A stretch of DNA of 64,000 nt. Origin: a bacterium (GTDB lineage: Bacteria; Patescibacteriota; Minisyncoccia; Phycocordibacterales; UBA2100). Positions 3,121-62,991 of the stretch are shown piece by piece; positions within the stretch are counted from its first letter, which is position 1; every line of letters starts with the position of its first letter. The notes beneath the pieces are model-generated. The model saw nothing but the letters and a program-made list of their open reading frames with translations, was not told where the DNA came from and did not search any database. The stretch spans positions 94,458 to 158,457 of the forward strand of contig JAYPJF010000001.1 in the NCBI GenBank assembly GCA_038128225.1, given 5' to 3'. The position numbers were made by a program, and so were the translations under genes.

Positions 3121-4554
3121 CTAGTTGGAAATAACTACCGAGACACTTTCAAGATTCGAGTTCGAGGGAGAACCTGTTCGCAGCGAAACAATGTATGTGC
3201 CCGCTGATGCGTATGTGTGCGTGAACTCTTTAGTCGTAACCGCGGCAGAGCACGAACCTGCACTCTGAGAAACAGCGGAGGTCCCATCACCCCACTCCAA
3301 TTCATAGTAGCTGCATGGTGACGCAATCTGGAACGTGCTTCGCATTTTGCGCGGATTATTATCAACACCAGGAACGAGTGTGAATTGCGTGTCTACCGTT
3401 GGCTGCTGTGCTGTGCCCGAGGTAGTAATTACCTGCGTCTGCGCAAGCTGCGCCTGTCCGGCACTTACCTGCTGTGCCGTCCCGCGGTATAAAGATGCAC
3501 TGAAAGATCCTCCATACTCATACCGGTGCGTTACTGAATACGTGCGCGGGGCACAAGAACCCGAATTGTAATAAAGTTCGGCATGCGTTCCGTCACCAAA
3601 AGCTAGTGTGTACGTCCCCCCCGCGCACTGTGAATCTTGGTTGATGGTCGCGCTGAATTGCGCAGTGAACGGTGCGTTGCCGCTCGCGTCTGCAACCGAG
3701 AGCGTACCGTACGCTGTTGGCGAAGGTAGTATTGGCGTTGGTGTAGGCTGAGTTGTTTGTCCGGTACCGACATTTATTACAATCGAGGAAGTGCGTGTTC
3801 CTGTTGAAATAGTAACTGGGTAGACACCAGGTACCGGATATGTGTGCACGTATGATTGCGTTAATTCATTACAGTACCCTGCCCCCACCGGTAAAATCAC
3901 GAGCGGCGATCCGTCCCCGTAATTTATAGTGTACGTAGCAGCTTGGCATGATTTAACAGTATTCGCGGTTGCGGTAATAGTTACCGTAAGAGGAGCAGGC
4001 CCAGAAACAGGCGAGGCTTTAAGGTATGCGCCTACTTGTCCTCCTGTTTGGTACCCGTATTGGTAAGCCGATTGGACAACACATCCTTCTGCAAGCGCCT
4101 TCTGTGTACGCGGACCAACGCATCCATACCATTCCCCTACCCATCCTGGCGGCGCATTAATACCGCAGGCTTTTTGAAAACTAGTAACCGCCGCTATAGT
4201 TAGAGGGCCGAACGTTCCAGAAACAACCCCCTCCGGGTAAATGTTCTTATCCTGCGCGAGAAACCGTTGCAGAGCCGCAACTTTCTCACCAGTTGCGCCT
4301 TCGTGTATGTGCTCTCCAAGAAACAGTCCTCCACTAAAAATAGAGCTGCCAGAAACACTGCCTGAAGGTAGCGTCGTTGGCGCAACAGGAGTGGTGACTG
4401 ACCCTGGAATGCTTGTTAGCTCTGCTTGAAGTGCTTGAATGCGCGCAAGAAGTGCCGAAACTTGTTGTTGTAGTTCAGTGAGGCTTTGTGCAGAGCTGAG
4501 CCATGGTACGGAAACAAGCACCGCAAGAGACAGAACGGCAAGGTATCTTTTCAT
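3121..4554 (-). CDS. Secreted protein: signal peptide, coiled coil, peptidoglycan-binding-like domain, and three PKD-like repeats
   Basis: The start is refined to the internal Met (MKRYLAVLSLAVLVSVPWLSSAQS, a signal peptide). The 4662 start would overlap the tRNA. Coiled coil LTELQQQVSALLARIQALQAEL. PGBD-like motif GEKVAALQRFLAQDKNIYPEGVVSGTFGPLTIAAVTSFQ. Three repeats carry (Y/F/W)GDG(S/T)...HTY, a PKD-like signature. Confidence 0.7.
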   Translation of the reverse strand: MKRYLAVLSLAVLVSVPWLSSAQSLTELQQQVSALLARIQALQAELTSIPGSVTTPVAPTTLPSGSVSGSSIFSGGLFLGEHIHEGATGEKVAALQRFLAQDKNIYPEGVVSGTFGPLTIAAVTSFQKACGINAPPGWVGEWYGCVGPRTQKALAEGCVVQSAYQYGYQTGGQVGAYLKASPVSGPAPLTVTITATANTVKSCQAATYTINYGDGSPLVILPVGAGYCNELTQSYVHTYPVPGVYPVTISTGTRTSSIVINVGTGQTTQPTPTPILPSPTAYGTLSVADASGNAPFTAQFSATINQDSQCAGGTYTLAFGDGTHAELYYNSGSCAPRTYSVTHRYEYGGSFSASLYRGTAQQVSAGQAQLAQTQVITTSGTAQQPTVDTQFTLVPGVDNNPRKMRSTFQIASPCSYYELEWGDGTSAVSQSAGSCSAAVTTKEFTHTYASAGTYIVSLRTGSPSNSNLESVSVVISN

Positions 4555-4603
4555 ACACGCATTGTCGCATGCTCTCTGCGTGCGACAAGATGAAATCCAC
4601 TTG

Positions 4604-4676
4604 TCCGCCCCCCTGGACTCGAACCAGGAACCGCAGAGGTATAAGCTCTGTGCTCTAACCATTAAGCTAGGGGCGG
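4604..4676 (-). tRNA. tRNA-Ile, anticodon UAU (decodes AUA)
   Basis: Cloverleaf read by hand on the minus strand. Acceptor CCGCCCC/GGGGCGG (7 bp), U8, D-stem GCTT/GAGC with a GG D-loop. Anticodon stem CAGAG/CTCTG with loop CTTATAC. Variable loop of 5 nt. T-arm CCTGG-TTCGAGT-CCAGG. Discriminator A. CCA is not encoded. Confidence 0.8.
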
Positions 4677-10823: not shown

Positions 10824-11211
10824 GGGGATGATTGGCTTCGACAAAGAGATACGGATCATACATATGCATGGCATAGCTGTGGTATCTATTCAAACTGCCA
10901 CAAACCAATAAGTGCAAACAAAACTGCACGTGGAATCTTGAGCCCAATTCAGGCAAAAGATCTCCAGTTCGCTTACGCATTAGCCTAAGCGACCGCTCGC
11001 CTATCGACATCCGATACATAGTTGCGAACGTCATACTTTCGGGTTCGACAACGCTTCAGTCTGGAAGCGACGTCTAAAGAAACATGACTCGAGTTTGTGC
11101 GATCTTGTGCATTCACAACGCGCAACCTCTAAACCTCTCTGAATGTACTACGCCTTGTAGATAGATGTGTGTTCCCTCTTTTGGACGGGGGTTCAATTCC
11201 CCCCATCTCCA
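10824..11211 (+). ncRNA. ssrA: tmRNA (ssrA), one-piece
   Basis: 5' end GGGGAUGAUUGGCUUCGAC. 3' tRNA-like end GGACGGGGGUUCAAUUCCCCCCAUCUCCA. Acceptor stem 7 bp with G3:U70. Internal tag frame ends ...AKDLQFAYALA then TAA (10986-10988). A terminator hairpin lies at 11228..11256. Located directly after smpB. Confidence 0.8.
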
Positions 11212-11227
11212 CATCAATAGACACGCT

Positions 11228-11843: not shown

Positions 11844-13202
11844 CTATTCGACGATAACGGTAATGCTCTTGCTTGCCATTGGCTGCCCACCGGGCACGGT
11901 GCTGCCTGTTTTCACCTTTGCGGTGAAATGAATCTGATACGTTCCCGCAGTGACGAATGTGTACGTAATACTCGAGCCTACTTTTGAGGTAAGGATGCCT
12001 GTGCTCACCGTTGCCCCGCTTGTTTGCGAACCCCAGATTTCAATTGATTGTTCAAGAGTCCCTGTGCCACTCGCTGAGAACGACCACGTCCCGGATTGCC
12101 CTGCAGAAAGTTTCGTCGGACCAGATATATCGCCAATGGTCGGCTTGCTGACACAACTGCCCGTGTACACAACATTCGCGCGGGCCGCTTTTGCAGCACA
12201 TGTATTTGTATATGTTTTTGGTTCCTGCTGCATACAGAGCATTGTTGCAACGCCTGTACCCCCAGCGTTCGCACATCCAGGAGGAATCGCGCACACAGGT
12301 GCATAGTCTTGTGTACACACACCTGTTTGTGACGGTACTTGCTGCCCTCCATTTCCGCCATCGATACTCCCTGGTGACGCAGCGCCCGATGTATCAGAAG
12401 TTGAAGTTGCTGTAGGGCACATAAACGCACATGAAGGTGGTGTACGCCCGACCCAGCTGCCGTCTGAGCACTTCTTTACATCCTGCGTACACACGTCCTT
12501 GCCTGTGTTTGAGAATGTTCCCGTACAATACCCCTGCATATATACCGCACACGCTTTTGCGGTGCACACTGCTGCTCCACCAGATGTTTCGCGTGAGCAC
12601 GTATTACAACCATCGAACCACGCTTTACAAGTTGCACCCGGTACAAATGGGCGTGTGTCGTTAAACGAACTTGGGCTTATCGAATTTATACGGACAGTCG
12701 CTGTGGCATCTGTAGCTACGGTGCATCGTGTTGCTATTTTCGCGCGCGTTTGTTTCCCAACAACTCCATACCCGTTTGTACTTGGAGATCCGGAGCAGAT
12801 GCCGAGTTCTCGACATTGAAACTTTTTGACTGCAGTTTCCGTAGCTGGTCCAAATGTCCCAACAATAGTGGTGTTAAAATCTCCCGTACCCACTAAAAAA
12901 CGTTGTAGTTCAGAAACAGACGTGTCGGCTGTTGAATCTTGCCCACCACGTTTTATATCTCGAGCAATTTGCGGACACACGGTGTCTGTATGCGCTGCTG
13001 CTGTGTTTGATGTCATACGCGTGTCAACTGAAACACCTCCCGCCGCATTGATCTGCGCCTGTAGAGAATTGACGAGCGCCATAAGCGACGCGATGCTGTC
13101 CAACAAGTCAGTCTGAGTTTGTGCTCGTGCCGAAGAAACTGCAAAAAACATGCTCGCAATCATTACGCCGATCACGAGAAACTTTGATGTATAAACGCGC
13201 AT
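11844..13202 (-). CDS. Secreted protein: signal peptide, coiled coil, PG-binding-like domain, Cys-rich modules including a Kazal-like domain, and a C-terminal beta (PKD-like) domain
   Basis: The start is refined to MRVYTSKFLVIGVMIASMFFAVSSARA (signal peptide). Coiled coil LQAQINAAGG. PGBD-like motif VSELQRFLVGTGDFNTTIVGTFGPATETAVKKFQ. Kazal-like CTQDYAPVC...KTYTNTCAAKAARANVVYTGSC. The module CKAWFDGCNTCSR is shared with the 61168 gene. Confidence 0.7.
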   Translation of the reverse strand: MRVYTSKFLVIGVMIASMFFAVSSARAQTQTDLLDSIASLMALVNSLQAQINAAGGVSVDTRMTSNTAAAHTDTVCPQIARDIKRGGQDSTADTSVSELQRFLVGTGDFNTTIVGTFGPATETAVKKFQCRELGICSGSPSTNGYGVVGKQTRAKIATRCTVATDATATVRINSISPSSFNDTRPFVPGATCKAWFDGCNTCSRETSGGAAVCTAKACAVYMQGYCTGTFSNTGKDVCTQDVKKCSDGSWVGRTPPSCAFMCPTATSTSDTSGAASPGSIDGGNGGQQVPSQTGVCTQDYAPVCAIPPGCANAGGTGVATMLCMQQEPKTYTNTCAAKAARANVVYTGSCVSKPTIGDISGPTKLSAGQSGTWSFSASGTGTLEQSIEIWGSQTSGATVSTGILTSKVGSSITYTFVTAGTYQIHFTAKVKTGSTVPGGQPMASKSITVIVE

Positions 13203-13777: not shown

Positions 13778-14254
13778 TTAATACGAATATCCGTACGGAT
13801 AGGTGTAACTATACGGATACGCATAGTTGTAATTGTAGTTGTACGGGTAGTAATTTTGGTATGGGTAATATGTTTGGTTCGAATTGTAGCCTGGGTAGGT
13901 ATTCACACAGCCCGTCGTCGTATATGTCGTACAGGTATTGTACGGATAGGTGTAATTGTATGGGTATGTATAGTTTGTATTCGTGTACGGATAGTAATAA
14001 TTGTAGTTATAGTTGTACGGGTATGCGTAGGCGTTCGAATATGTGTAATTGTACTGCCCATACTGGCTACAATTTGGTGAGCCAAAGTTTGGCGTTGCTA
14101 CAACGCGATAGGTTACCTGCCCCGTGTATGGATCCCTACCCTGTACTTGATAATTGTATGTGTAGCAGTTGTTGACCGAATAATCATAGTCCGCAAATGC
14201 AAAGCCCGGAATAATCATCGCCACCGCAACCATAAATAAGGAGAGTTTTTTCAT
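13778..14254 (-). CDS. Secreted low-complexity Tyr/Asn/Thr/Pro-rich protein with YPYNYNY-type repeats
   Basis: Signal peptide MKKLSLFMVAVAMIIPGFAFA. Mature part is about 30 % Tyr, with repeated YPYNYNYNY / YTYPYNYTYPY units. The DNA carries the corresponding tandem repeats. Confidence 0.6.
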   Translation of the reverse strand: MKKLSLFMVAVAMIIPGFAFADYDYSVNNCYTYNYQVQGRDPYTGQVTYRVVATPNFGSPNCSQYGQYNYTYSNAYAYPYNYNYNYYYPYTNTNYTYPYNYTYPYNTCTTYTTTGCVNTYPGYNSNQTYYPYQNYYPYNYNYNYAYPYSYTYPYGYSY

Positions 14255-22157: not shown

Positions 22158-24962
22158 CTAAATCCATCCACTGTTTGGTTTGAGTGCTTCCGGATTATAC
22201 GCCCCTGTAGAACTCTTATATCGGGCACGTATCTCTTCCTCAACCTGTTCACGTGGCCGCCCATAGCGCTCATATGATTGCTGTTTCAGTATGTCCACAC
22301 GCGAAAAATCAGTTTTCTCCGGTTTTAGTGTCTCAATATTGAATGGCTTTACCGGCCGACCACGTACCAAAAGCCGCAGGTACGCGTTGTAGTTATCGAG
22401 ATGCATAATATCTTGCGCCGCGAACTCTGGTTCAAACATAGTTGAAAGAAACTCCGCATCTTTTTCACCCACACGGAACACGCAGCGCGTACCTACGTTT
22501 CCAAATACCGCGTCTCGAATCTCATCGGTAAGTTGATCGATAAATTGGTGTGCGATACTTAGTACAAGACGGTATTTCCGTGCTTCCGAAAGAATCGTGG
22601 CAATAGACGGCGTTGTAAAATTCTGGAACTCGTCGATGTACATGTAGAAAGGTTTAATTTCGGCTTTCCCCACTAGATCCACACGCGAGAGTGCTGCGTT
22701 TAATATTTTTCCAACAAAGACAAGCCCTAAAAGCGACGAGTTTAATTCTCCCAGGCGCCCTTTTGAAAGATTGATAAGTAATATTTTGCGCTCGTCCATG
22801 ACGCTGCGGAAATCAAACGCGGAATGCTCTTGGCCAATAATGGGGCGCATAATTTCGTTTGCCAAAAAAACATCGAACTTGTTTGTCACATATTGTCCAA
22901 ACGCCTCGAGTTTTTGTTCTCCTTCCAATTTTGTAGCAATCCCCTGCCAAAATTCAACAATGAGCGGATTTTTACAGCGTGCAATTTTTAAGTTGCGAAA
23001 CGCTTCGTTGGTAAAAATGCGCGTAATATCAACCATCGTGTTTCCTGTTGCGGGGTCGTCCATGACCAAAAGCGCTGAGTTACGGAAATACTGCTCAAAA
23101 GCCGGACCAATTGATTCCGGAACCGAGCCATAGAGTTTTTTGAAAATGCCGATGAGCTCGTCGACTAAAAAAGTCTTTTGTTCTGGACGCCTCAGATCGT
23201 ATTCGAGCATATTAAGCCCCATCGGTCGTGGCAAATACCCGGGGTCAAAATATATAACATCTTGCTCGCGTTCTGGAGGAACCGCGGCAAGAATGTCTTG
23301 AATATCAGAACCGTGCGGATCGATATAACACACCCCTTCTCCGTTTCGGATATCTTGAATGATCATATTCTTCATCAGGCTCGACTTACCTGTGCCAGTC
23401 TGCCCGACTTCATAAAAATGGCGGAACCGATCTTCTTCCGCAAAATATACTTTTTGTTCTGACGCACCATGGCGATTGATCCCGAGTACTATCCCCTCTT
23501 CGGGCATGTCGGTTGGCGCAGGCGACTGTTTTGCACGCGACTGCTTCAATTCACGCGACGTGCGCACCCCCTCTGCGGTCAAGTGGTATATAGTAGTAAG
23601 TTCAGAAAAATTTAATGGGAGCGCGCGCGATACCTCCGGAACGCGCATTATGAAGTTGTTGATAACCCCTTCGCGTGTCCAACTTCCTGCTTCTTTAAAA
23701 ACAATACTGTTGCCCTGCGGGTCGCTAAACTGATTAAATGTTGACGCAAGGTTTTCTAAAATATCGCGGGCGCGCGCTTGCGTCTTCGCCGAAGCAAGAA
23801 TGCGGATATTCACCGGAACAATTCGGTTAGAGACTTTTTTACCAACACGTTCGGTGAGTTCTTGTTCAGCAGAACTCTCGGTGTTCTTCTTCTCGGGCAA
23901 AATTAATCCGGTGGTGAAGTCCTTTGCAAATTCACCAAGCATGGTTTCTGGGACTTTTCTTGCCTCCTTGAAAGACTTCCCTTTATGAAGCGCCTTAAGC
24001 ATTTTCTTGTAGTGCGCATTGTAGCGGTCCCCTTCGTTCCCTACGATGATCTGGAGCGCCGCACCTTCATCATGTTTGTGCAATTTTGCGAACGCTGAAA
24101 GCATGACGTTCATCGGGTCATGTTGGAACGTATCATACGTTTTAAGCGGCAACGCGGGATGTTCGGAGAGTTGTGCGTACGCGGCCACATGTTCACCATG
24201 CGAATTAAAAATATTATAGTCTCCGCGGCGCTCGTTCAGTTTTGCGTTTGGAAAGATTGAAAACAGGTGTCGTTCAAACAAATCCTTCTTGTTTGAGGGA
24301 ACCGCAATAAAAAACACCGCTTCTTCAGAACCTTCCGCGACAGCAATCTCCATTGAAAAGACGTTACTTTTACTCGAGGCGTTACCGCTCGCGATCGCAA
24401 GGAGCCCCGCGTACAGTTGCTCCATCGAAGCAAGAAGGTGCGCCAGGTCTCGTTGTTGTTCTTCTTTCTGTGTCGCTCCTTGCGGTTGAACTTCAAACAG
24501 CGTCATATGCAGCGCCCGCCACGTTTGTCCTTGTTCCTGTAAATAACCACCGACGGGCAACCCTTCGGCAACATAGCGCACCAACGCACGATGAAAATCA
24601 TCTTGGACATGTGGGTTACGCATGCGCGCCGAAACCGAAAGTGCATTTCTAATGCCGCGATCCTGCACCACGCGAAGCAACGCATCAATCTGTACGTCGT
24701 GCGTTTCTGGTTCTAGTTTGAGTGCCTCACGCACCACATCGTGCGTTGGCGTAATAACGGTCTCGTGCAACACTTCTGCCGGCGGCGTCTCGTCATATCT
24801 TTCGATTTCGCGCTTCGCGATTCGTTCACGCTCAAAAGAATCGTCATGCACCCCGAGCTCTTTCTCTTTTTCAGCAACACGCTTGCGCAAATAAACCAAC
24901 TCCTCTTCCGGAGTCGTAAAACGCTGCGGCGTATCGAGCGATATACGGGATCGTTCCGCCAT
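22158..24962 (-). CDS. Large P-loop ATPase of the VirB4/TraG/HerA-FtsK superfamily with an N-terminal domain of unknown function of about 450 aa
   Basis: Walker A GQTGTGKSS, Walker B YMYIDEF, and a C-terminal RKYRLVLSIAHQFIDQL motif. No transmembrane segment. Confidence 0.5.
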   Translation of the reverse strand: MAERSRISLDTPQRFTTPEEELVYLRKRVAEKEKELGVHDDSFERERIAKREIERYDETPPAEVLHETVITPTHDVVREALKLEPETHDVQIDALLRVVQDRGIRNALSVSARMRNPHVQDDFHRALVRYVAEGLPVGGYLQEQGQTWRALHMTLFEVQPQGATQKEEQQRDLAHLLASMEQLYAGLLAIASGNASSKSNVFSMEIAVAEGSEEAVFFIAVPSNKKDLFERHLFSIFPNAKLNERRGDYNIFNSHGEHVAAYAQLSEHPALPLKTYDTFQHDPMNVMLSAFAKLHKHDEGAALQIIVGNEGDRYNAHYKKMLKALHKGKSFKEARKVPETMLGEFAKDFTTGLILPEKKNTESSAEQELTERVGKKVSNRIVPVNIRILASAKTQARARDILENLASTFNQFSDPQGNSIVFKEAGSWTREGVINNFIMRVPEVSRALPLNFSELTTIYHLTAEGVRTSRELKQSRAKQSPAPTDMPEEGIVLGINRHGASEQKVYFAEEDRFRHFYEVGQTGTGKSSLMKNMIIQDIRNGEGVCYIDPHGSDIQDILAAVPPEREQDVIYFDPGYLPRPMGLNMLEYDLRRPEQKTFLVDELIGIFKKLYGSVPESIGPAFEQYFRNSALLVMDDPATGNTMVDITRIFTNEAFRNLKIARCKNPLIVEFWQGIATKLEGEQKLEAFGQYVTNKFDVFLANEIMRPIIGQEHSAFDFRSVMDERKILLINLSKGRLGELNSSLLGLVFVGKILNAALSRVDLVGKAEIKPFYMYIDEFQNFTTPSIATILSEARKYRLVLSIAHQFIDQLTDEIRDAVFGNVGTRCVFRVGEKDAEFLSTMFEPEFAAQDIMHLDNYNAYLRLLVRGRPVKPFNIETLKPEKTDFSRVDILKQQSYERYGRPREQVEEEIRARYKSSTGAYNPEALKPNSGWI

Positions 24963-41080: not shown

Positions 41081-42253
41081 CTATTCCCCACCATGCTCCA
41101 TCTCTAGCGTATACAAGCCAGCACGATCAGGCACAACTCCATGAACAACCATATCGTTTGCAATATACGTATGATCCCCGCTAACGTATAAGTTATAGAG
41201 TTTCTGAGCTTCTTGCGTGTTAGGGATTACTTCAAGAGTTTCCACTACAAGTTCGCCATCTGCAAGAAGGATAACGTCTCCAACATCCAGCTGTCCAACA
41301 CGTCCTGCAAGCTGATCATATGCTTCAACTTCAGCCATTGACGGGTTTGCTGCTTTCCACCCTTCAGCGGTCATCACAGGGTGGTTGTCGGTCATAAACG
41401 GCTCACCTCCATTTATACGAATCAGGTGCTGTGGTTTGCTTTCCCACAGCATTGTGTGGTCGAGTGCAAGCACGACATTACTACCACCATGGGGAGCGCG
41501 CACATGGTCACCAACACGAATTTCGTAAATCGGTTTTTGCGAACCGTCTTCCATTGTCACCAAGGTTTCTTTAGTGAAACAAGAACAACGCCCGCCACTT
41601 GGGCATCCTGAAGAAGTGAGTGTGCCATTAACGCATCTCGTTACGTTCACACCGTTAACACTTCCAGTACAACCGCTTGTACAAATACTCACAGCCGATA
41701 CAGCACCATTGGGTACATCCCCACACGTAGTGGTACTGCAGACAATACCGTCTCCGGCACTATTTGCCTTACAATACCTACTTGCCGTGAGCGTACTGAC
41801 TTGTGGGTCTGTTTCCGTGTATGAAAGCAGTGGCTGGTCGGAGGTACACGTTACCTGTGTCCCGTTAGTGGTACACCACTTCCCACTTGTAAGCGTACCT
41901 ACCTGAGGGTCTGATTCACTTACTGAGGTGAAGTTGGTCCACCCCCCACCGCTGTTTTTGTATTCAATGACCCCCGCATTATCCCTGATACCGTATCCGG
42001 CCGATCCTGCAGTCGTACCAAAATTTAAGTATCGAGAGGCACCGGAGAGAATCGCGTTTCCGTATACCGCGAGCGAGTTTACACCAAGACCCGCGTTCTT
42101 GATCTGATCAGTTGTCCCAACATTAACGGGAGCCGACACGTTTCCATTTGGAGGTGTCTGCGTAGGGCCCGTCCAGGCATACACAACACCAAGCGTCGCA
42201 AAAATTACAGCTCCTGTTATGAACGACGCGATGTGTGAAAGGGGTTTGGGCAT
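41081..42253 (-). CDS. Secreted protein with N-terminal Cys-containing repeats and a C-terminal Hint (hedgehog/intein-like, BIL-type) domain
   Basis: N-terminal hydrophobic segment. Repeats ESDPQVGTLTSGKWCTT and ETDPQVSTLTASRYCKA. The Hint domain starts CFTKETLVTMEDGSQKPIYEIRVGDHV and ends YNLYVSGDHTYIANDMVVHG, matching the intein N- and C-terminal splicing blocks. Confidence 0.65.
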   Translation of the reverse strand: MPKPLSHIASFITGAVIFATLGVVYAWTGPTQTPPNGNVSAPVNVGTTDQIKNAGLGVNSLAVYGNAILSGASRYLNFGTTAGSAGYGIRDNAGVIEYKNSGGGWTNFTSVSESDPQVGTLTSGKWCTTNGTQVTCTSDQPLLSYTETDPQVSTLTASRYCKANSAGDGIVCSTTTCGDVPNGAVSAVSICTSGCTGSVNGVNVTRCVNGTLTSSGCPSGGRCSCFTKETLVTMEDGSQKPIYEIRVGDHVRAPHGGSNVVLALDHTMLWESKPQHLIRINGGEPFMTDNHPVMTAEGWKAANPSMAEVEAYDQLAGRVGQLDVGDVILLADGELVVETLEVIPNTQEAQKLYNLYVSGDHTYIANDMVVHGVVPDRAGLYTLEMEHGGE

Positions 42254-59075: not shown

Positions 59076-59540
59076 ATGAGTGTCTGTATTTTTTGCGCCA
59101 TTGTTCGCGGAGATGCACCAAGTCACAAAATTTGGGAAGATGAAAAACATCTTGCGTTCCTTTCTATTTTCCCTAACACCGAAGGTTTCTCAGTCGTAGT
59201 CACCAAAGAACATTACCCGAGCTATGTTGCAGACCTACCGAAAGATGTCCGCACCGATCTGTTTAACGCTGCGCTCACTGTGGCAAAAAAAATCGACGCT
59301 GCATTTTCAGACGTAGGGAGAACAGGCATTTTGTTTGAAGGCTTTGGCGTCAATCACGTGCACGCCAAGCTGTTTCCCATGCACGGAACAAAAACCGACC
59401 TGTGGCAGCAACATACGTCGAAGGAGAAAAGGTTTTTCGAGCACTACGAAGGCTATATTTCTTCACACGATGCCGCCCGCGCCGATGACGCCGCGCTTGC
59501 AAAGACAGCTGAGTTGATCCGCACTACACCTATTGCGTAG
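59076..59540 (+). CDS. HIT family (histidine triad) protein
   Basis: CIFCAIVRGD and the HVHAKLFP triad. Confidence 0.7.
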   Translation: MSVCIFCAIVRGDAPSHKIWEDEKHLAFLSIFPNTEGFSVVVTKEHYPSYVADLPKDVRTDLFNAALTVAKKIDAAFSDVGRTGILFEGFGVNHVHAKLFPMHGTKTDLWQQHTSKEKRFFEHYEGYISSHDAARADDAALAKTAELIRTTPIA

Positions 59541-61113
59541 CACAGTCGCCGTACTGGTACGTGCCGCTCCCTGAGAGATACCCGTCGGTACAGTACCGAA
59601 TCTGTTTATATGGTTCACAAGTCTCACCCACTGGGGCAACTGCGCGAGAATAAAAGGCACGCGAAGCGCCGTGCGCCACCTCTTTCCCGTCAAGGGTACA
59701 TACTGCTGCGTCTCGTGCACTACACGTCGCGAAGGCGTAGATATTGCTGCCGCCCAACACGCCGTTGGTACATGTGCGCACCTCCTCACTCTGAGCGCAG
59801 GTGCGCCCAAATGGCACTTCAGATGCCGAGTAAAACTTTCCAGTTTTCGTATGCTCAACCAAAACACCATCGAGAATGCACGCTTTTTGATTTGATGGGG
59901 CACAGTATGAGAATTTATAAGAAGCTGTTCCGTTTAGTACTCCATTAGTACACGTACGCGACTGTTTTTTGTTTGCACAGCTCGCAATCGTATCAGTGCG
60001 GTCCGAATAAAAATCCTTACTGGCTCCATGGGCGACCTTCACGCTATCAAGCGTACACGAAAGTCCCGGGGTAACGGAGCACGCAGGGTGTACGTATGCT
60101 GAATCGCCGGATACATATCCGTCGTTACATACGCGCACAAGTTTGAAGTCGTCACATGATTGATTGTAAGGCACAATCGTTTTCGAAAAGAAACTACGCT
60201 GAGCACCATGAGTAAGCGTCGTACTTGTGGCGCTCGATGCAACCACCTCACACGAACGAGCGCTGGTCACCGCACACGTAGCGAATCGATACGTTGGGTC
60301 GCCCGACAACGTGCCGTCGTTACAGGTTCTTGTTTGGCCAAATGGCGCGCACTGTTGACCAAACAGCACGTCTCGTTGCTTGTAGAATGTCTTGCTCTGA
60401 CCGTGTGTGACTGTAACCCCATCAACCGTACACGACCCAGGAGTTGTGTTCGCTGTGCATGTAGGGAATGAATACGCAGGGTCTCCTGAAAGTACTCCGT
60501 TCATACACTTCCGGGGGATGCCGAGACATGATGCCCCAAAAGGAACTACACCCGATGTATATAGCGTGCGCGTTTCACCACTTGCAAGCACTGTCGTTCC
60601 AAGAATACAGTTGAGTACAGAAGGGGTGGGGGGAGGCGGCGATGGAATCACCACTGGAGTCCCGAGAGCACACACACGCACTAGTGCTGCCCGTGTTGCG
60701 GGACCAACCGCACCAAAACCGGTAGTCTCGACACTGCCGGAACTTACTATGTTCTGCTGGATTTGGAAACGTTCAACGGCGCGCGCGGTCAACGCTCCAA
60801 AATATCCGGTAATTTGAGCTTCAGGGTATAGTGCGGGTGTTTTCGCTAAAAATTGCTGCAACGCAGAAACATCGGTCCCTGAAACCCCTGGTTTAAGATT
60901 TCTGGCAATTGTCGGGCATGACCCTTGCGAAGTTGTTGTAGGAGTAACCGGAACCGTACCTCCAGTCCTTGCAGCCTGAATGCGTTGCTCTAATTGTGCA
61001 ACTTGTTGTAGTAGTGCTTGAATCTGAGCCGTGAGCTGTTCTGAGGTTTGCGCATGCACACTCCCCACACTTACGATAAACCCGAGTAAGGCGAGCGCCA
61101 GGATATTTCTCAT
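59530..61113 (-). CDS. Secreted protein: signal peptide, coiled coil, PG-binding-like domain, and six tandem four-Cys repeats of about 60 aa
   Basis: Signal peptide MRNILALALLGFIVSVGSVHA. Coiled coil LTAQIQALLQQVAQLEQRIQAAR. PGBD-like DVSALQQFLAKTPALYPEAQITGYFGALTARAVERFQ. Six repeats C.hDG..V.HG.S..FY......PFG..C.....R.C.NG.LSG...Y.F..C. Confidence 0.7.
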   Translation of the reverse strand: MRNILALALLGFIVSVGSVHAQTSEQLTAQIQALLQQVAQLEQRIQAARTGGTVPVTPTTTSQGSCPTIARNLKPGVSGTDVSALQQFLAKTPALYPEAQITGYFGALTARAVERFQIQQNIVSSGSVETTGFGAVGPATRAALVRVCALGTPVVIPSPPPPTPSVLNCILGTTVLASGETRTLYTSGVVPFGASCLGIPRKCMNGVLSGDPAYSFPTCTANTTPGSCTVDGVTVTHGQSKTFYKQRDVLFGQQCAPFGQTRTCNDGTLSGDPTYRFATCAVTSARSCEVVASSATSTTLTHGAQRSFFSKTIVPYNQSCDDFKLVRVCNDGYVSGDSAYVHPACSVTPGLSCTLDSVKVAHGASKDFYSDRTDTIASCANKKQSRTCTNGVLNGTASYKFSYCAPSNQKACILDGVLVEHTKTGKFYSASEVPFGRTCAQSEEVRTCTNGVLGGSNIYAFATCSARDAAVCTLDGKEVAHGASRAFYSRAVAPVGETCEPYKQIRYCTDGYLSGSGTYQYGDCATQ

Positions 61114-61167: not shown

Positions 61168-62991
61168 CTACCGTGCCGCGATGCACGAAGCGGTAAATGT
61201 TGTAGACCAGTAGTGATGATTCGCCCCCGCTGCACAGTGATACGCTCCGCCGCACATACCACCTACTGCAGTGTTATCGAATGTACATGCTCCCTCCGCG
61301 GTTGTGGGACACGGTGCGAATGCACAATTGGGTCCCGTGCGCCCTACATAGCTTCCGTCTGGACATTGTTTTGCTTCTTGTGTACAGACCACATCAGTTG
61401 CGGCTGCGCACTCACCCGCATACTTAAACACCGCTTTTTCGGCTTCCATTTGGCACTGATTTCCATATGTTTTTCCGTACTGACATTCATATGGATACGA
61501 ACCGAGAGCAAATTTCGAAACGAGGCAGTAGTATGGTGTCGCACAAACAGGCGCGTACTCCATTGTACAAGCAACAGGACCCCCACTTGAAACAGTTACC
61601 GTGATGGTTGTTTTTGCTTCTTTTCCTTCAGGGTCGCGCACCACAGCAGTTACTGTATACATCCCAGCCTTCGAATATGTATGAGTGAAAGTAGTTACTT
61701 GTCCAAAGCCGAGCGCGCTCGCGACTGCGTCAAGTGCATTCCAAAACCCAGTTTCGTCCCCCCAGGTCACTTTGTATGAGAGTGTTTTTTGTTCCGGGTC
61801 ACGTGCCTCTACGCTCCAGGTCCCTGTTTCGTTCACCGTAAGATGTGTCGGCCCGGAAAAACCACTAACCACCGGCGGTTGATTTTCGCGAACACCGTCG
61901 AAATATTCTTTACAGTACCCGGGAGCTTGCCATATACATGCCCTAAGCGTACACATCGCGACTGCGCCTACGGTGTCTCGAGAACAATCGTTACATCCAT
62001 CGTACCACGTCTTGCATGTCGGTGCTGGTTCAAACGGTTTATTGTCTATGCGACACTGACCTTCATATAAAAGCGTTGCGCCAGCAGCTTCCATAACACA
62101 AGTGTTTGAATATGTTTTTGGATCTGGTTGTTTGCACATCGCAGCACAATACGCTCCCGGAGGGCAGGTGTTTTCGCAACCTGTAGGTTGCCCACACACA
62201 GGACGGTATTCTTTTGTGCACGCCACGTTTCCACCAACGGTGATTTGAATTTTCGCCACCACCTCCGAACTCACCGGTGCCATACACAATGGGTTACCGA
62301 GGCACGGGTCGGTTATTTTGTTTAACGTCGCCGTGTACGTTCCCGCTTGCGTATACGTGTGTTTGTTTTCCCCAGGAGAGACACAAGCGTCAGCAGGTGC
62401 ACTACATTCAGTAGCAGCCTCTCGCCCTCCATCTCCGTACTCAACTAGATACGAAACACCTGCCGGTCGCAGACCACCAACCCACGAATTGAAAACTACA
62501 GTAAGTGGCGCCGCTCCTGTTCGCGGGTTCACCTCGAAAAGACCGTGTACACCGCACCACTTTTTAAAATAATTTTGCGTAATCGGCCCCACCACGCCCA
62601 CTGATTCAATTCCTTCACTGGATTGCAGTCTCTTTATCGCGGCGAGAGTCAGGCTTCCAAAGTATCCTGTTGGAGAGACGCCAAGATAGCCCTTGTCTTT
62701 AAGAAATTCCTGGAGCGCCGTGATGTGCTCACCAGAAGTACCTTGCCCCCAATTGCTGTTCTGGGCAAAAAAATCACATACGCGCACCCGTGCAGGATTG
62801 GCGGAACTCACTTGTATAACTGAGACACCAGTCGTCGAAGCCTGCTGCATGACGCCGATTTGTTGTCGCAGTTCAGAAATCCGACCTAAAAGAGAGCGGA
62901 TCTGTGTTTGTAATTCATCAACCGTGACCGCAGGTACAACAGTCGGAACCATGAGTAAAACTACCGCAAACCCAAGGATGTGTTTCTTCAT
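61168..62991 (-). CDS. Secreted protein: signal peptide, coiled coil, PG-binding-like domain, PKD-like domains, and two Kazal-like domains
   Basis: Coiled coil LQTQIRSLLGRISELRQQIGVMQQ. PGBD-like HITALQEFLKDKGYLGVSPTGYFGSLTLAAIKRLQ. PKD-like YKVTWGDETG and YLVEYGDGG. Kazal-like CTKEYRPVCGQ...KTYSNTCVMEAAGATLLYEGQC and CTMEYAPVCA...KTYGNQCQMEAEKAVFKYAGEC. Module CKTWYDGCNDCSR. Confidence 0.7.
   Translation of the reverse strand: MKKHILGFAVVLLMVPTVVPAVTVDELQTQIRSLLGRISELRQQIGVMQQASTTGVSVIQVSSANPARVRVCDFFAQNSNWGQGTSGEHITALQEFLKDKGYLGVSPTGYFGSLTLAAIKRLQSSEGIESVGVVGPITQNYFKKWCGVHGLFEVNPRTGAAPLTVVFNSWVGGLRPAGVSYLVEYGDGGREAATECSAPADACVSPGENKHTYTQAGTYTATLNKITDPCLGNPLCMAPVSSEVVAKIQITVGGNVACTKEYRPVCGQPTGCENTCPPGAYCAAMCKQPDPKTYSNTCVMEAAGATLLYEGQCRIDNKPFEPAPTCKTWYDGCNDCSRDTVGAVAMCTLRACIWQAPGYCKEYFDGVRENQPPVVSGFSGPTHLTVNETGTWSVEARDPEQKTLSYKVTWGDETGFWNALDAVASALGFGQVTTFTHTYSKAGMYTVTAVVRDPEGKEAKTTITVTVSSGGPVACTMEYAPVCATPYYCLVSKFALGSYPYECQYGKTYGNQCQMEAEKAVFKYAGECAAATDVVCTQEAKQCPDGSYVGRTGPNCAFAPCPTTAEGACTFDNTAVGGMCGGAYHCAAGANHHYWSTTFTASCIAAR

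Follow-up and report, generated by a model that had tools for sequence, protein, structure and literature searches.

Kazal-like and pacifastin-like heads in a predicted wall-tethered protein of a Patescibacteriota genome, a candidate surface protease inhibitor

Gene and domain organization

The sequence analysed here, referred to as the window, is a stretch of 64,000 nucleotides from the Patescibacteriota assembly GCA_038128225.1 (contig JAYPJF010000001.1, positions 94,458 to 158,457 of the forward strand; Minisyncoccia, Phycocordibacterales, UBA2100). On its minus strand lies a gene, p1, whose predicted secreted product carries two heads homologous to Kazal protease inhibitors and a third, pacifastin-like head. 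A paralogous gene, p2, encodes one head of each kind. The identical p1 gene call is found in the annotation of a public assembly, where it is flanked by TIM and PGK on one side and by a 527 amino acid protein, HIT and RecJ on the other. The features of p1 are as follows, in window coordinates, with the evidence for each in parentheses.

61168..62991, minus strand: p1 gene, predicted secreted multidomain protein of 607 amino acids with 34 Cys (open reading frame (ORF) list)
62926..62991, minus strand: putative signal peptide, residues 1–22, MKKHILGFAVVLLMVPTVVPAV (read straight from the sequence)
62578..62736, minus strand: PG_binding_1, residues 86–138 (PF01471, 37.9 bits against a cut-off of 23, E 2e-9)
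62236..62544, minus strand: first PKD-like domain, residues ~150–252, limits approximate (conserved in the family alignment)
62044..62229, minus strand: Kazal-like head 1 (K1), residues 255–316 (Kazal_1, profile A1, AlphaFold2 (AF2), Foldseek)
61900..62028, minus strand: pacifastin-like head, residues 322–364 (Pacifastin_I, profile A2, AF2, Foldseek)
61591..61884, minus strand: second PKD domain, residues 370–467 (Pfam PKD_4, 43.4 bits, E 3.5e-11)
61402..61578, minus strand: Kazal-like head 2 (K2), residues 472–530 (Kazal_1, A1 hidden Markov model (HMM))
61303..61395, minus strand: CTQ module with 4 Cys, residues 533–563, VCTQEAKQCPDGSYVGRTGPNCAFAPCP (regular expression)
61171..61296, minus strand: C-terminal tail with 4 Cys, residues 566–607, missing in most homologs

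The signal peptide is followed by a stretch that reads as an amphipathic helix (residues ~25–50) and by PG_binding_1, which is presumed to be the cell-wall tether. Two stretches of p1 are matched by the Pfam PKD_4 and PKD models. The pairing of the heads with peptidoglycan-binding and PKD domains, proposed in an initial annotation of this sequence, is borne out by these matches. Surface display of p1 may reasonably be deduced from the signal peptide, PG_binding_1 and the wall or lipid anchors of its relatives. Most p1 homologs stop after K2 in the family alignment. The CTQ module, with the consensus C-T-x-[DE]-A-x-x-C-P-[DN]-G-[ST]-[YW]-V-G-R-[ST]-G-P-N-C-x-F-x-C-P, follows this head in about 27 of the 120 retrieved homologs, is present in p2 and occurs in other proteins from the representative-protein search. 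Pfam and PDB sequence searches with the p1 CTQ module and C-terminal tail gave no match.

The paralog p2 has the order signal peptide, helix, PG_binding_1, pacifastin-like head, CTQ module, Kazal-like head and a PKD-like C-terminus. Its mechanical ORF extends to 13271; the start at 13202, which gives MRVYTSKFLVIGVMIASMFFAVSSARA followed by QT, was adopted because a normal signal peptide results. The leader of signal peptide, helix and PG_binding_1 is common to four paralogs in the window.

11844..13202, minus strand: p2 gene, paralog of 452 amino acids from the 13202 start (ORF; Pfam PG_binding_1, 29 bits)
12513..12641, minus strand: pacifastin-like head, C-KAWFDG-C-N-T-C ... C-T-A(P1)-K-A-C, CKAWFDGCNTCSR (Pacifastin_I)
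12411..12500, minus strand: CTQ module, VCTQDVKKCSDGSWVGRTPPSCAFMCP (regular expression)
12144..12326, minus strand: Kazal-like head (A1 HMM, 57.9 bits, independent E-value 6.6e-17)

Kazal-like heads

The two Kazal-pattern segments of p1 and the one of p2 that the initial annotation had described are found in the sequence at those places. K1 reads C258-T-K260(P1)-E-Y-R-P-V-C266, with KTYSNTC from residue 292 and YEGQC ending at residue 313. K2 reads C475-T-M477(P1)-E-Y-A-P-V-C483, with KTYGNQC from residue 507 and YAGEC ending at residue 528. The p2 head reads C-T-Q(P1)-D-Y-A-P-V-C, followed by KTYTNTC and YTGSC. All three are interrupted by an insertion, which has 22 residues and 4 Cys in K1 (length 26 by the family regular expression), 23 residues and 2 Cys in K2, and 2 Cys in p2 (family-expression length 25). 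There are 22–26 residues between PVCG and KTY in these heads, compared with about four in a classical Kazal domain.

The Pfam evidence for these domains taken singly is marginal. Kazal_1 scores 16.8 bits on the whole of p1 against a curated cut-off of 21, because the insertion splits the HMMER match to the model into two halves. On K2 alone the score is 21.0 bits, equal to the cut-off (E 3.4e-4), and on K1 it is 19.0 bits, rising to 28.2 bits (E 1.9e-6) once the 22-residue insertion is deleted. The p2 head alone scores 11.8 bits. An alignment of 46 related Kazal-like heads drawn from p1 homologs was made, referred to as A1. Half of these domains (23 of 46) match Kazal_1 or the other Kazal families at E <= 0.01, the Kazal families being the only ones matched, and 40 of the 120 listed p1 homologs carry a precomputed PF00050 match.

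Searches against the PDB identify the heads more firmly. With a single sequence, Kazal inhibitors were returned, the top match being silk protease inhibitor 2 of Galleria mellonella (SPI2), at E 5.9e-5. With the A1 profile SPI2 is again first, at E 5.5e-8, and the further matches are nearly all Kazal inhibitors. An hhalign comparison of A1 with five known Kazal domains gave 97.6% (P 2.8e-12), with one 21-residue gap placed exactly at the insertion; these five references were entered by hand, in part from printed PDB alignments, and the value carries that reservation. The HMM built from A1, trained without K2 and without the p2 head, finds K2 with an independent E-value of 1.4e-9. Among the 1279 six-frame ORFs of the window, HMMs from the homologous domains match p1 and p2 only, and a regular expression search for the Kazal and companion motifs in all six frames found none outside these two genes. 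The resemblance is therefore not a matter of chance. At E <= 1e-3, an exhaustive A1 search of 1.84 billion proteins returned 1446 representative proteins, among them classical multi-Kazal arrays (P0128, E 6e-48, Pfam Kazal_1 520 bits). Many others have insertion-bearing heads in tandem arrays, and these arrays pass the Kazal_1 cut-off (P0136, 51.7 bits).

The initial annotation had also pointed to structure prediction, and the predicted fold is compatible with Kazal. The AF2 model of A1 has a mean predicted local distance difference test (pLDDT) score of 83.8 and contains strands at 12–16, 39–41 and 52–57 and a helix at 44–49, in the order strand-strand-helix-strand. This is the Kazal fold of a short three-stranded sheet on one helix. 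The best Foldseek match of K1 in the PDB is 4HGU (SPI2), with probability 1.00, a target-normalised template modelling (TM) score of 0.85, a root-mean-square deviation (rmsd) of 1.6 A and 33% identity. The second and third matches are both the leech tryptase inhibitor LDTI, and the remainder are noise. The assignment of the p1 and p2 heads as Kazal domains holds at the level of profile and of predicted fold.

The set of cysteines is not the classical one. Kazal cysteines 1 and 5 are missing throughout the family, including the three window domains, and cysteines 2, 3, 4 and 6 do not vary. With only four of the six Kazal Cys in the core, the heads depart from the six-cysteine definition (1-5, 2-4, 3-6), and the three-disulfide topology that had been expected is not supported. 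This implies a two-disulfide, "non-classical" Kazal type like that of SPI2, from which the first-to-fifth bridge would have been lost and in which the 2-4 and 3-6 pairs are probably kept. Extra cysteines occur only within the insertion, with either 2 or 4 of them in every one of the 215 domains examined, which argues that they pair with one another. In the AF2 model the strands at 12–16 and 39–41, on either side of the insertion, are kept, so that the insertion replaces the turn of a beta-hairpin.

The reactive loops of the window domains are CTKEYRPVC, CTMEYAPVC and CTQDYAPVC, each with the supporting Asn of TY-x-N-x-C, on the canonical frame C(P3)-T(P2)-P1-E(P1')-Y(P2')-x-P-V-C. Family-wide, conservation is 90% or more, up to invariance, at the Cys, Tyr, Pro and Cys of the loop, at the Thr-Tyr and at the Asn, and P3 Cys, P2 Thr, P2' Tyr and the Asn hardly vary over about 120 homologs. 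In head 1 the P1 residue is Lys in 102 of 121 sequences, and the loop is C-T-K-E-Y in most. The P1 of head 2 is variable, with M (36), L (14), A (14), T (8), Q (5), K (4), E (4), D (3) and others. Canonical inhibitors characteristically combine a fixed scaffold with hypervariable positions of contact. Within the A1 domain the highest column entropy is that of the residue after the fourth Kazal Cys (3.33 bits), followed by P1 (2.91 bits), and P3' is likewise variable (2.33 bits). The scaffold columns and the Asn show no variation in A1. These variable columns, P18', P1 and P3', we take to be the protease-contact residues known from ovomucoid complexes in Laskowski's work. The pattern of variability suggests inhibitor-like evolution of the heads.

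The companion module is pacifastin-like

A conserved companion module had been noted in both proteins, and it is present as CKTWYDGCNDCSR, beginning at residue 326 of p1, and as CKAWFDGCNTCSR in p2. In p1 it reads C326-KTWYDG-C333-N-D-C336 ... C347-T-L349(P1)-R-A-C352 ... C360. Pacifastin_I gives 21.2–21.7 bits on the p1 copy against a cut-off of 27.9 (E about 2e-4 to 3e-4) and 20.7 bits on the p2 copy (E 3.4e-4; 16.1 bits for the whole of p2). In an alignment of 44 family copies, A2, of which the p2 copy is the second row, all 44 match Pacifastin_I and no other Pfam family (best E 2.3e-7). All 11 matches of the A2 profile in the PDB up to E 10 are pacifastins, the best being PMP-C at E 1.9e-4, and the alignment of DGCNSC...CTLRAC in A2 to DKCNTC...CTLKAC in PMP-C is gapless. 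Comparison of A2 with four locust inhibitors by hhalign gave 94.0%. The AF2 model of the head is all-beta with a pLDDT of 93.9, and the small antiparallel beta-sheet of pacifastins is present in this prediction. The top 12 Foldseek matches in the PDB are all pacifastins, at TM 0.54–0.64, rmsd 2.0–2.8 A and 35–50% identity (probability about 0.5). These sequence and profile matches identify the companion module as a pacifastin-like domain, of a second inhibitor family.

The cysteine pattern of pacifastins is C1-x(9-12)-C2-N-x-C3-x-C4-x(2-3)-G-x(3-6)-C5-T-x3-C6. The module keeps C2-N-x-C3, the Gly and C5-T-x3-C6, and departs from the full pattern elsewhere. A new Cys lies 7–12 residues after C6, on an added C-terminal strand. 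The P1-P1' site between C5-Thr and C6 is present, as C-T-L-R-A-C in p1 and C-T-A-K-A-C in p2. The reactive site of the family is C-T-Leu-Arg/Lys-Ala/Tyr-C, with Leu at P1 in 88 of 96 copies (column entropy 0.47 bits) and an exact CTLKAC in eleven. In other taxa the P1 of the module varies between K, R, M, E, S and Q.

The initial reading of the locus is supported with two corrections: the Kazal heads would be of a two-disulfide variant with an insertion, and the companion belongs to a second inhibitor family.

Distribution and synteny

A total of 240 homologs of p1 were matched, of which 120 are listed, at 39–49% identity. Those listed are named Candidatus Kaiserbacteria, Paceibacterota, Minisyncoccia or Parcubacteria, and public annotation goes no further than 'peptidoglycan-binding', 'PKD domain-containing' or 'hypothetical'. 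In about 30 species-representative genomes an ortholog is found with PGK on one side and HIT/RecJ on the other, and the GC content and the GC content of third codon positions (GC3) of p1 equal those of the housekeeping genes in the window. Because of this synteny and composition p1 is taken as an old resident of the lineage, and recent transfer or contamination is ruled out.

The 527 amino acid protein that adjoins p1 (59530..61113, minus strand), referred to as p3, has the same leader of signal peptide, helix and PG_binding_1. It continues with six repeats of 52–58 residues, each with 4 Cys, of the form C..DG..V.HG.S..FY...C...R.C.NG.LSG...Y...C. No Pfam family matches the repeats; a haemadin match in the Pfam scan at E 0.018 is weak and was treated as chance. 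Full-length orthologs of p3 adjoin p1 orthologs in several genomes.

In species-representative genomes a scan with A2 detected 77 loci, of which about 65 belong to Patescibacteria. One relative (L075, 859..1248) is a membrane-anchored protein of 127 residues in which an uninterrupted two-disulfide Kazal domain (...GEC) is followed by a pacifastin-like module, each scoring above the curated cut-off of its family (Kazal_1 35.9 against 21; Pacifastin_I 30.7 against 27.9). It lies on a 1.8-kb contig binned as the archaeon Methanofastidiosum; this binning is doubtful and the origin uncertain. Another (L032, 3059..4645), on the Candidatus Altimarinota chromosome OZ246423.1, combines SLH domains with three pacifastin-like modules (Pacifastin_I 30.6 bits, above the cut-off) and a C-terminal thioredoxin. 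In this protein an extracytoplasmic thiol-disulfide domain is fused to Cys-rich heads.

Three loci (L070, binned as Micavibrio, and L071 and L073, binned as Moraniibacteriota) encode lipoproteins in which MliC (Pfam E 4.6e-12) is joined to one pacifastin-like module with Arg or Lys at P1. Such fusions would be dual inhibitors of lysozyme and protease. L070 and L071 are closely similar by eye, and at least one of their bin assignments may be wrong. The relatives with a pacifastin-like module are anchored by lipoprotein signals, SLH domains or PG_binding. These recurring anchors and the MliC fusion at three loci fit a protective role at the surface. The module is also present in Cys-rich secreted proteins on three low-GC IMG/VR contigs (L079–L081), two of them labelled as giant-virus metagenome-assembled genomes. 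On two further viral-labelled IMG/VR contigs (L082 and L083) it occurs in a lipoprotein-like protein and keeps C-x-C (CNTCQC) in addition to the extra Cys. No relatives of the Kazal-like head were found on the viral contigs searched.

Comparison with known inhibitors

The closest known relative of the Kazal-like heads is SPI2 (PDB 2M5X, 4HGU). It also lacks Kazal cysteines 1 and 5, has 14 residues between Cys 4 and Cys 6 as the heads do (CWLNEAGVGLDHEGEC against CVMEAAGATLLYEGQC), and shares the loop frame C-T-x-E-aromatic-x-P-V-C-G. SPI2 is however a free insect silk protein of 40 residues with a normal short GKDGK hairpin turn, whereas the window heads have a loop of 22–26 residues with 2 or 4 extra Cys and are part of a multidomain bacterial protein that is probably wall-tethered. 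The loop of the ovomucoid third domain (turkey and silver pheasant, OMTKY3 and variants; PDB 1CHO, 1HJA) is ACTKEYRPLCG in the P1-Lys variant, against ACTKEYRPVCG here. Both have TY-x-N-x-C with the loop-supporting Asn, although ovomucoid lacks an insertion, has a longer helix segment and is held by three disulfides. Full-text literature searches turned up no paper on Kazal domains in bacteria of the Candidate Phyla Radiation (CPR); bacterial Kazal entries exist in domain databases.

The pacifastin-like module is aligned without gaps to the locust inhibitors PMP-C (LCMI-II) and SGCI (PDB 1GL1, 1PMC, 1KGM; MEROPS I19) over D-x-C-N-T/S-C ... G ... A-C-T-L-K/R-A-C. The P1-P1' pair Leu-Lys/Arg is at an equal position, PMP-C and SGCI both reading C-T-L-K-A-C. 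The module differs in having Arg in place of Cys 4, in the position of Cys 1, which is 6 rather than 9–12 residues before Cys 2, and in its additional C-terminal strand with a new Cys. With this changed set of Cys one disulfide must be rewired, and we infer that it is the first. The pairs expected in the p1 head would be C333-C352, C336-C347 and C326-C360.

Pacifastin-like domains in CPR bacteria and myxobacteria were described by Rodriguez-Aguilar et al. (Sci Rep 2026, May; PMC13388995), who argued that they are genuinely bacterial. Their 24 accessions are from Woese-, Roizman-, Shapiro-, Ames- and Uhrbacteria, WWE3, WS6 and myxobacteria, with none from Kaiserbacteria, and 23 bacterial homologues were detected by structure only (PMC13388995). 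The module described here is by contrast detectable by sequence, has another Cys layout and is paired with Kazal heads, and the 77 loci form a broader set than the 24 accessions. Functional analogues are ecotin (I11) and the Kazal-like EPI1 and EPI10 of Phytophthora (PMC9904509), microbial inhibitors that work beyond the cytoplasm on serine proteases of foreign origin. The fold of ecotin is unrelated, and the EPI proteins are oomycete effectors in soluble form; neither has a peptidoglycan tether or brings together two families of inhibitor.

Proposed function and alternatives

The interpretation that we favour, with moderate confidence, is that p1 may be a wall-tethered, three-headed canonical serine-protease inhibitor that shields the surface. 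The protein would be secreted by the Sec pathway, tethered to peptidoglycan through PG_binding_1, and would present three small disulfide-stabilised heads spaced by PKD domains. The heads would act by the standard mechanism, as substrate-like inhibitors of serine proteases. Lys260 at P1 of head 1 would suggest trypsin- or lysyl-type targets, and Met477 of head 2 subtilisin-, chymotrypsin- or elastase-type targets. Leu349 of the pacifastin-like head, like Met477, would suit proteases with a preference for Met or Leu, for instance subtilisins or enzymes of the chymotrypsin type. The paralog p2 would be a two-headed version with P1 Ala (pacifastin) and Gln (Kazal). The likeliest role would be to guard the envelope and surface structures of an episymbiotic CPR cell from serine proteases secreted by hosts or competitors. 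The homology and predicted fold of the heads, their conservation in the family, the synteny and the variability of the loop are shown by the data, whereas inhibition by the heads, their disulfide pairing, the proteases met and the location of the protein are inferences.

Several points weigh against this interpretation. Many Kazal-like domains of eukaryotes are non-inhibitory, including those of follistatin, agrin and SPARC. None of the Kazal-like and pacifastin-like heads in the window exceeds its curated Pfam cut-off as it stands, and the Foldseek E-values are weak, at 0.085 for the Kazal head and about 1 for the pacifastin-like head, because the domains are tiny. The insertion is modelled by AF2 at low confidence (mean pLDDT 67 for residues 21–30), and it may not leave the protease-binding face free. 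In the pacifastin-like head the fourth Cys is missing, with an invariant Arg in its place, and C1 is only 6 residues before C2. There is also no S1 or S8 protease among the approximately 30 window ORFs scanned, the only protease being FtsH (M41).

The heads might be homologous to Kazal and pacifastin inhibitors and be non-inhibitory, serving as rigid disulfide-rich spacers or as adhesion modules, for example in attachment to the host. Such a role would be in keeping with the multidomain build of p1, with its PKD domains and further Cys modules, and with the neighbouring p3 as another wall-binding Cys-repeat protein. Compared with the classical scaffold, one disulfide is missing and a long insertion has been added, and the P1 of the pacifastin-like head shows no diversification from a near-fixed Leu (0.47 bits). 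It is however unlikely in our view, as the Kazal loop and its supporting Asn are nearly letter-for-letter those of ovomucoid (CTKEYRPVCG against CTLEYRPLCG), and variability is concentrated at P1, P3' and P18', which are protease contacts in solved Kazal complexes. The two-disulfide SPI2 is labelled a protease inhibitor in PDB entry 4HGU, and the pacifastin-like module is found fused to MliC, an inhibitor of lysozyme, which argues for defence and not for adhesion.

Active heads could instead be directed at the bacterium's own secreted or wall serine proteases, which would be silenced near the wall or timed during attachment. Secreted bacterial inhibitors have been reported to regulate the proteases of their own or of other organisms (PMC12620975), and a constant endogenous partner would explain why p1, a core gene passed on vertically, keeps its synteny and has an unchanging P1 in head 1 (Lys) and in the pacifastin-like head (Leu). 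The P1 of head 2 is on the other hand highly variable between species, a better fit to changing external targets, and neither the genes adjoining p1 and p2 nor the window ORFs scanned include a serine protease. Ecotin, the best-studied bacterial analogue, is not directed at endogenous proteases (PMC9904509). We consider regulation of the bacterium's own proteases rather improbable, and somewhat more so than a non-inhibitory role. A chance or convergent Cys pattern, or eukaryotic contamination of the metagenome bin, might be raised by the whole-protein Pfam scores under the cut-offs and by the proneness of small Cys-rich motifs to chance matches, but is effectively refuted by profile, profile-profile and fold searches that return only Kazal and pacifastin families, by 240 CPR homologs with conserved bacterial neighbours (TIM, PGK, HIT, RecJ), by GC and GC3 values like those of housekeeping genes and by the bacterial build of signal peptide and PG_binding_1, and we give it hardly any weight.

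Other features of the window

The following features of the window were observed in addition to p1, p2 and p3.

3121..4554, minus strand: fourth paralog with the common leader, consisting of signal peptide, amphipathic helix and PG_binding_1, then three PKD stretches
4603..4676, minus strand: tRNA-Ile, anticodon UAU (written tat)
10824..11212, plus strand: tmRNA, tag peptide ANKTARGILSPIQAKDLQFAYALA
13778..14254, minus strand: ORF of 158 amino acids with a signal peptide and an extremely Tyr/Asn-rich low-complexity body (YNYNYNY and YPY repeats)
22158..24962, minus strand: protein of 934 amino acids with a TraG/TraD-type coupling-protein C-terminal domain
41081..42253, minus strand: protein of 390 amino acids with a Hint/Vint (intein-like autoprocessing) domain

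The likely start of the fourth paralog is the Met at 4554, the mechanical start at 4662 overlapping the tRNA. Reading AUA with a tRNA-Ile of anticodon UAU is uncommon in bacteria. The Tyr/Asn-rich ORF has no Pfam match. The TraG/TraD-type protein may belong to a CPR type IV secretion or conjugation apparatus.

Significance

From its sequence, p1 is a conserved, syntenic and presumably wall-tethered protein that unites two inhibitor families best known from animals. If the proposed structure is correct, p1 would show that a Kazal domain can accommodate a disulfide-stapled insertion at the hairpin turn and that a pacifastin domain can have one disulfide rewired, and protein engineers would gain new small inhibitor scaffolds. 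The case for bacterial pacifastins is widened from matches by structure only to a much larger, sequence-detectable set.

More speculatively, CPR bacteria and a few surface-living or predatory bacteria may hold a large, old and native pool of Kazal and pacifastin domains, deployed as multi-headed shields anchored to the wall or by lipid. The p1 family would then be a conserved determinant of episymbiont survival on protease-secreting hosts, and the two-disulfide Kazal domains of animals and the pacifastins of arthropods would share ancestry with this pool through ancient transfer in either direction. This wider proposal is tentative, and we think it unlikely to hold in full. CPR bacteria have very small genomes and live attached to other microbes. 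Little is known of how they survive on hostile surfaces, and p1 would be a concrete and testable surface-defence factor.

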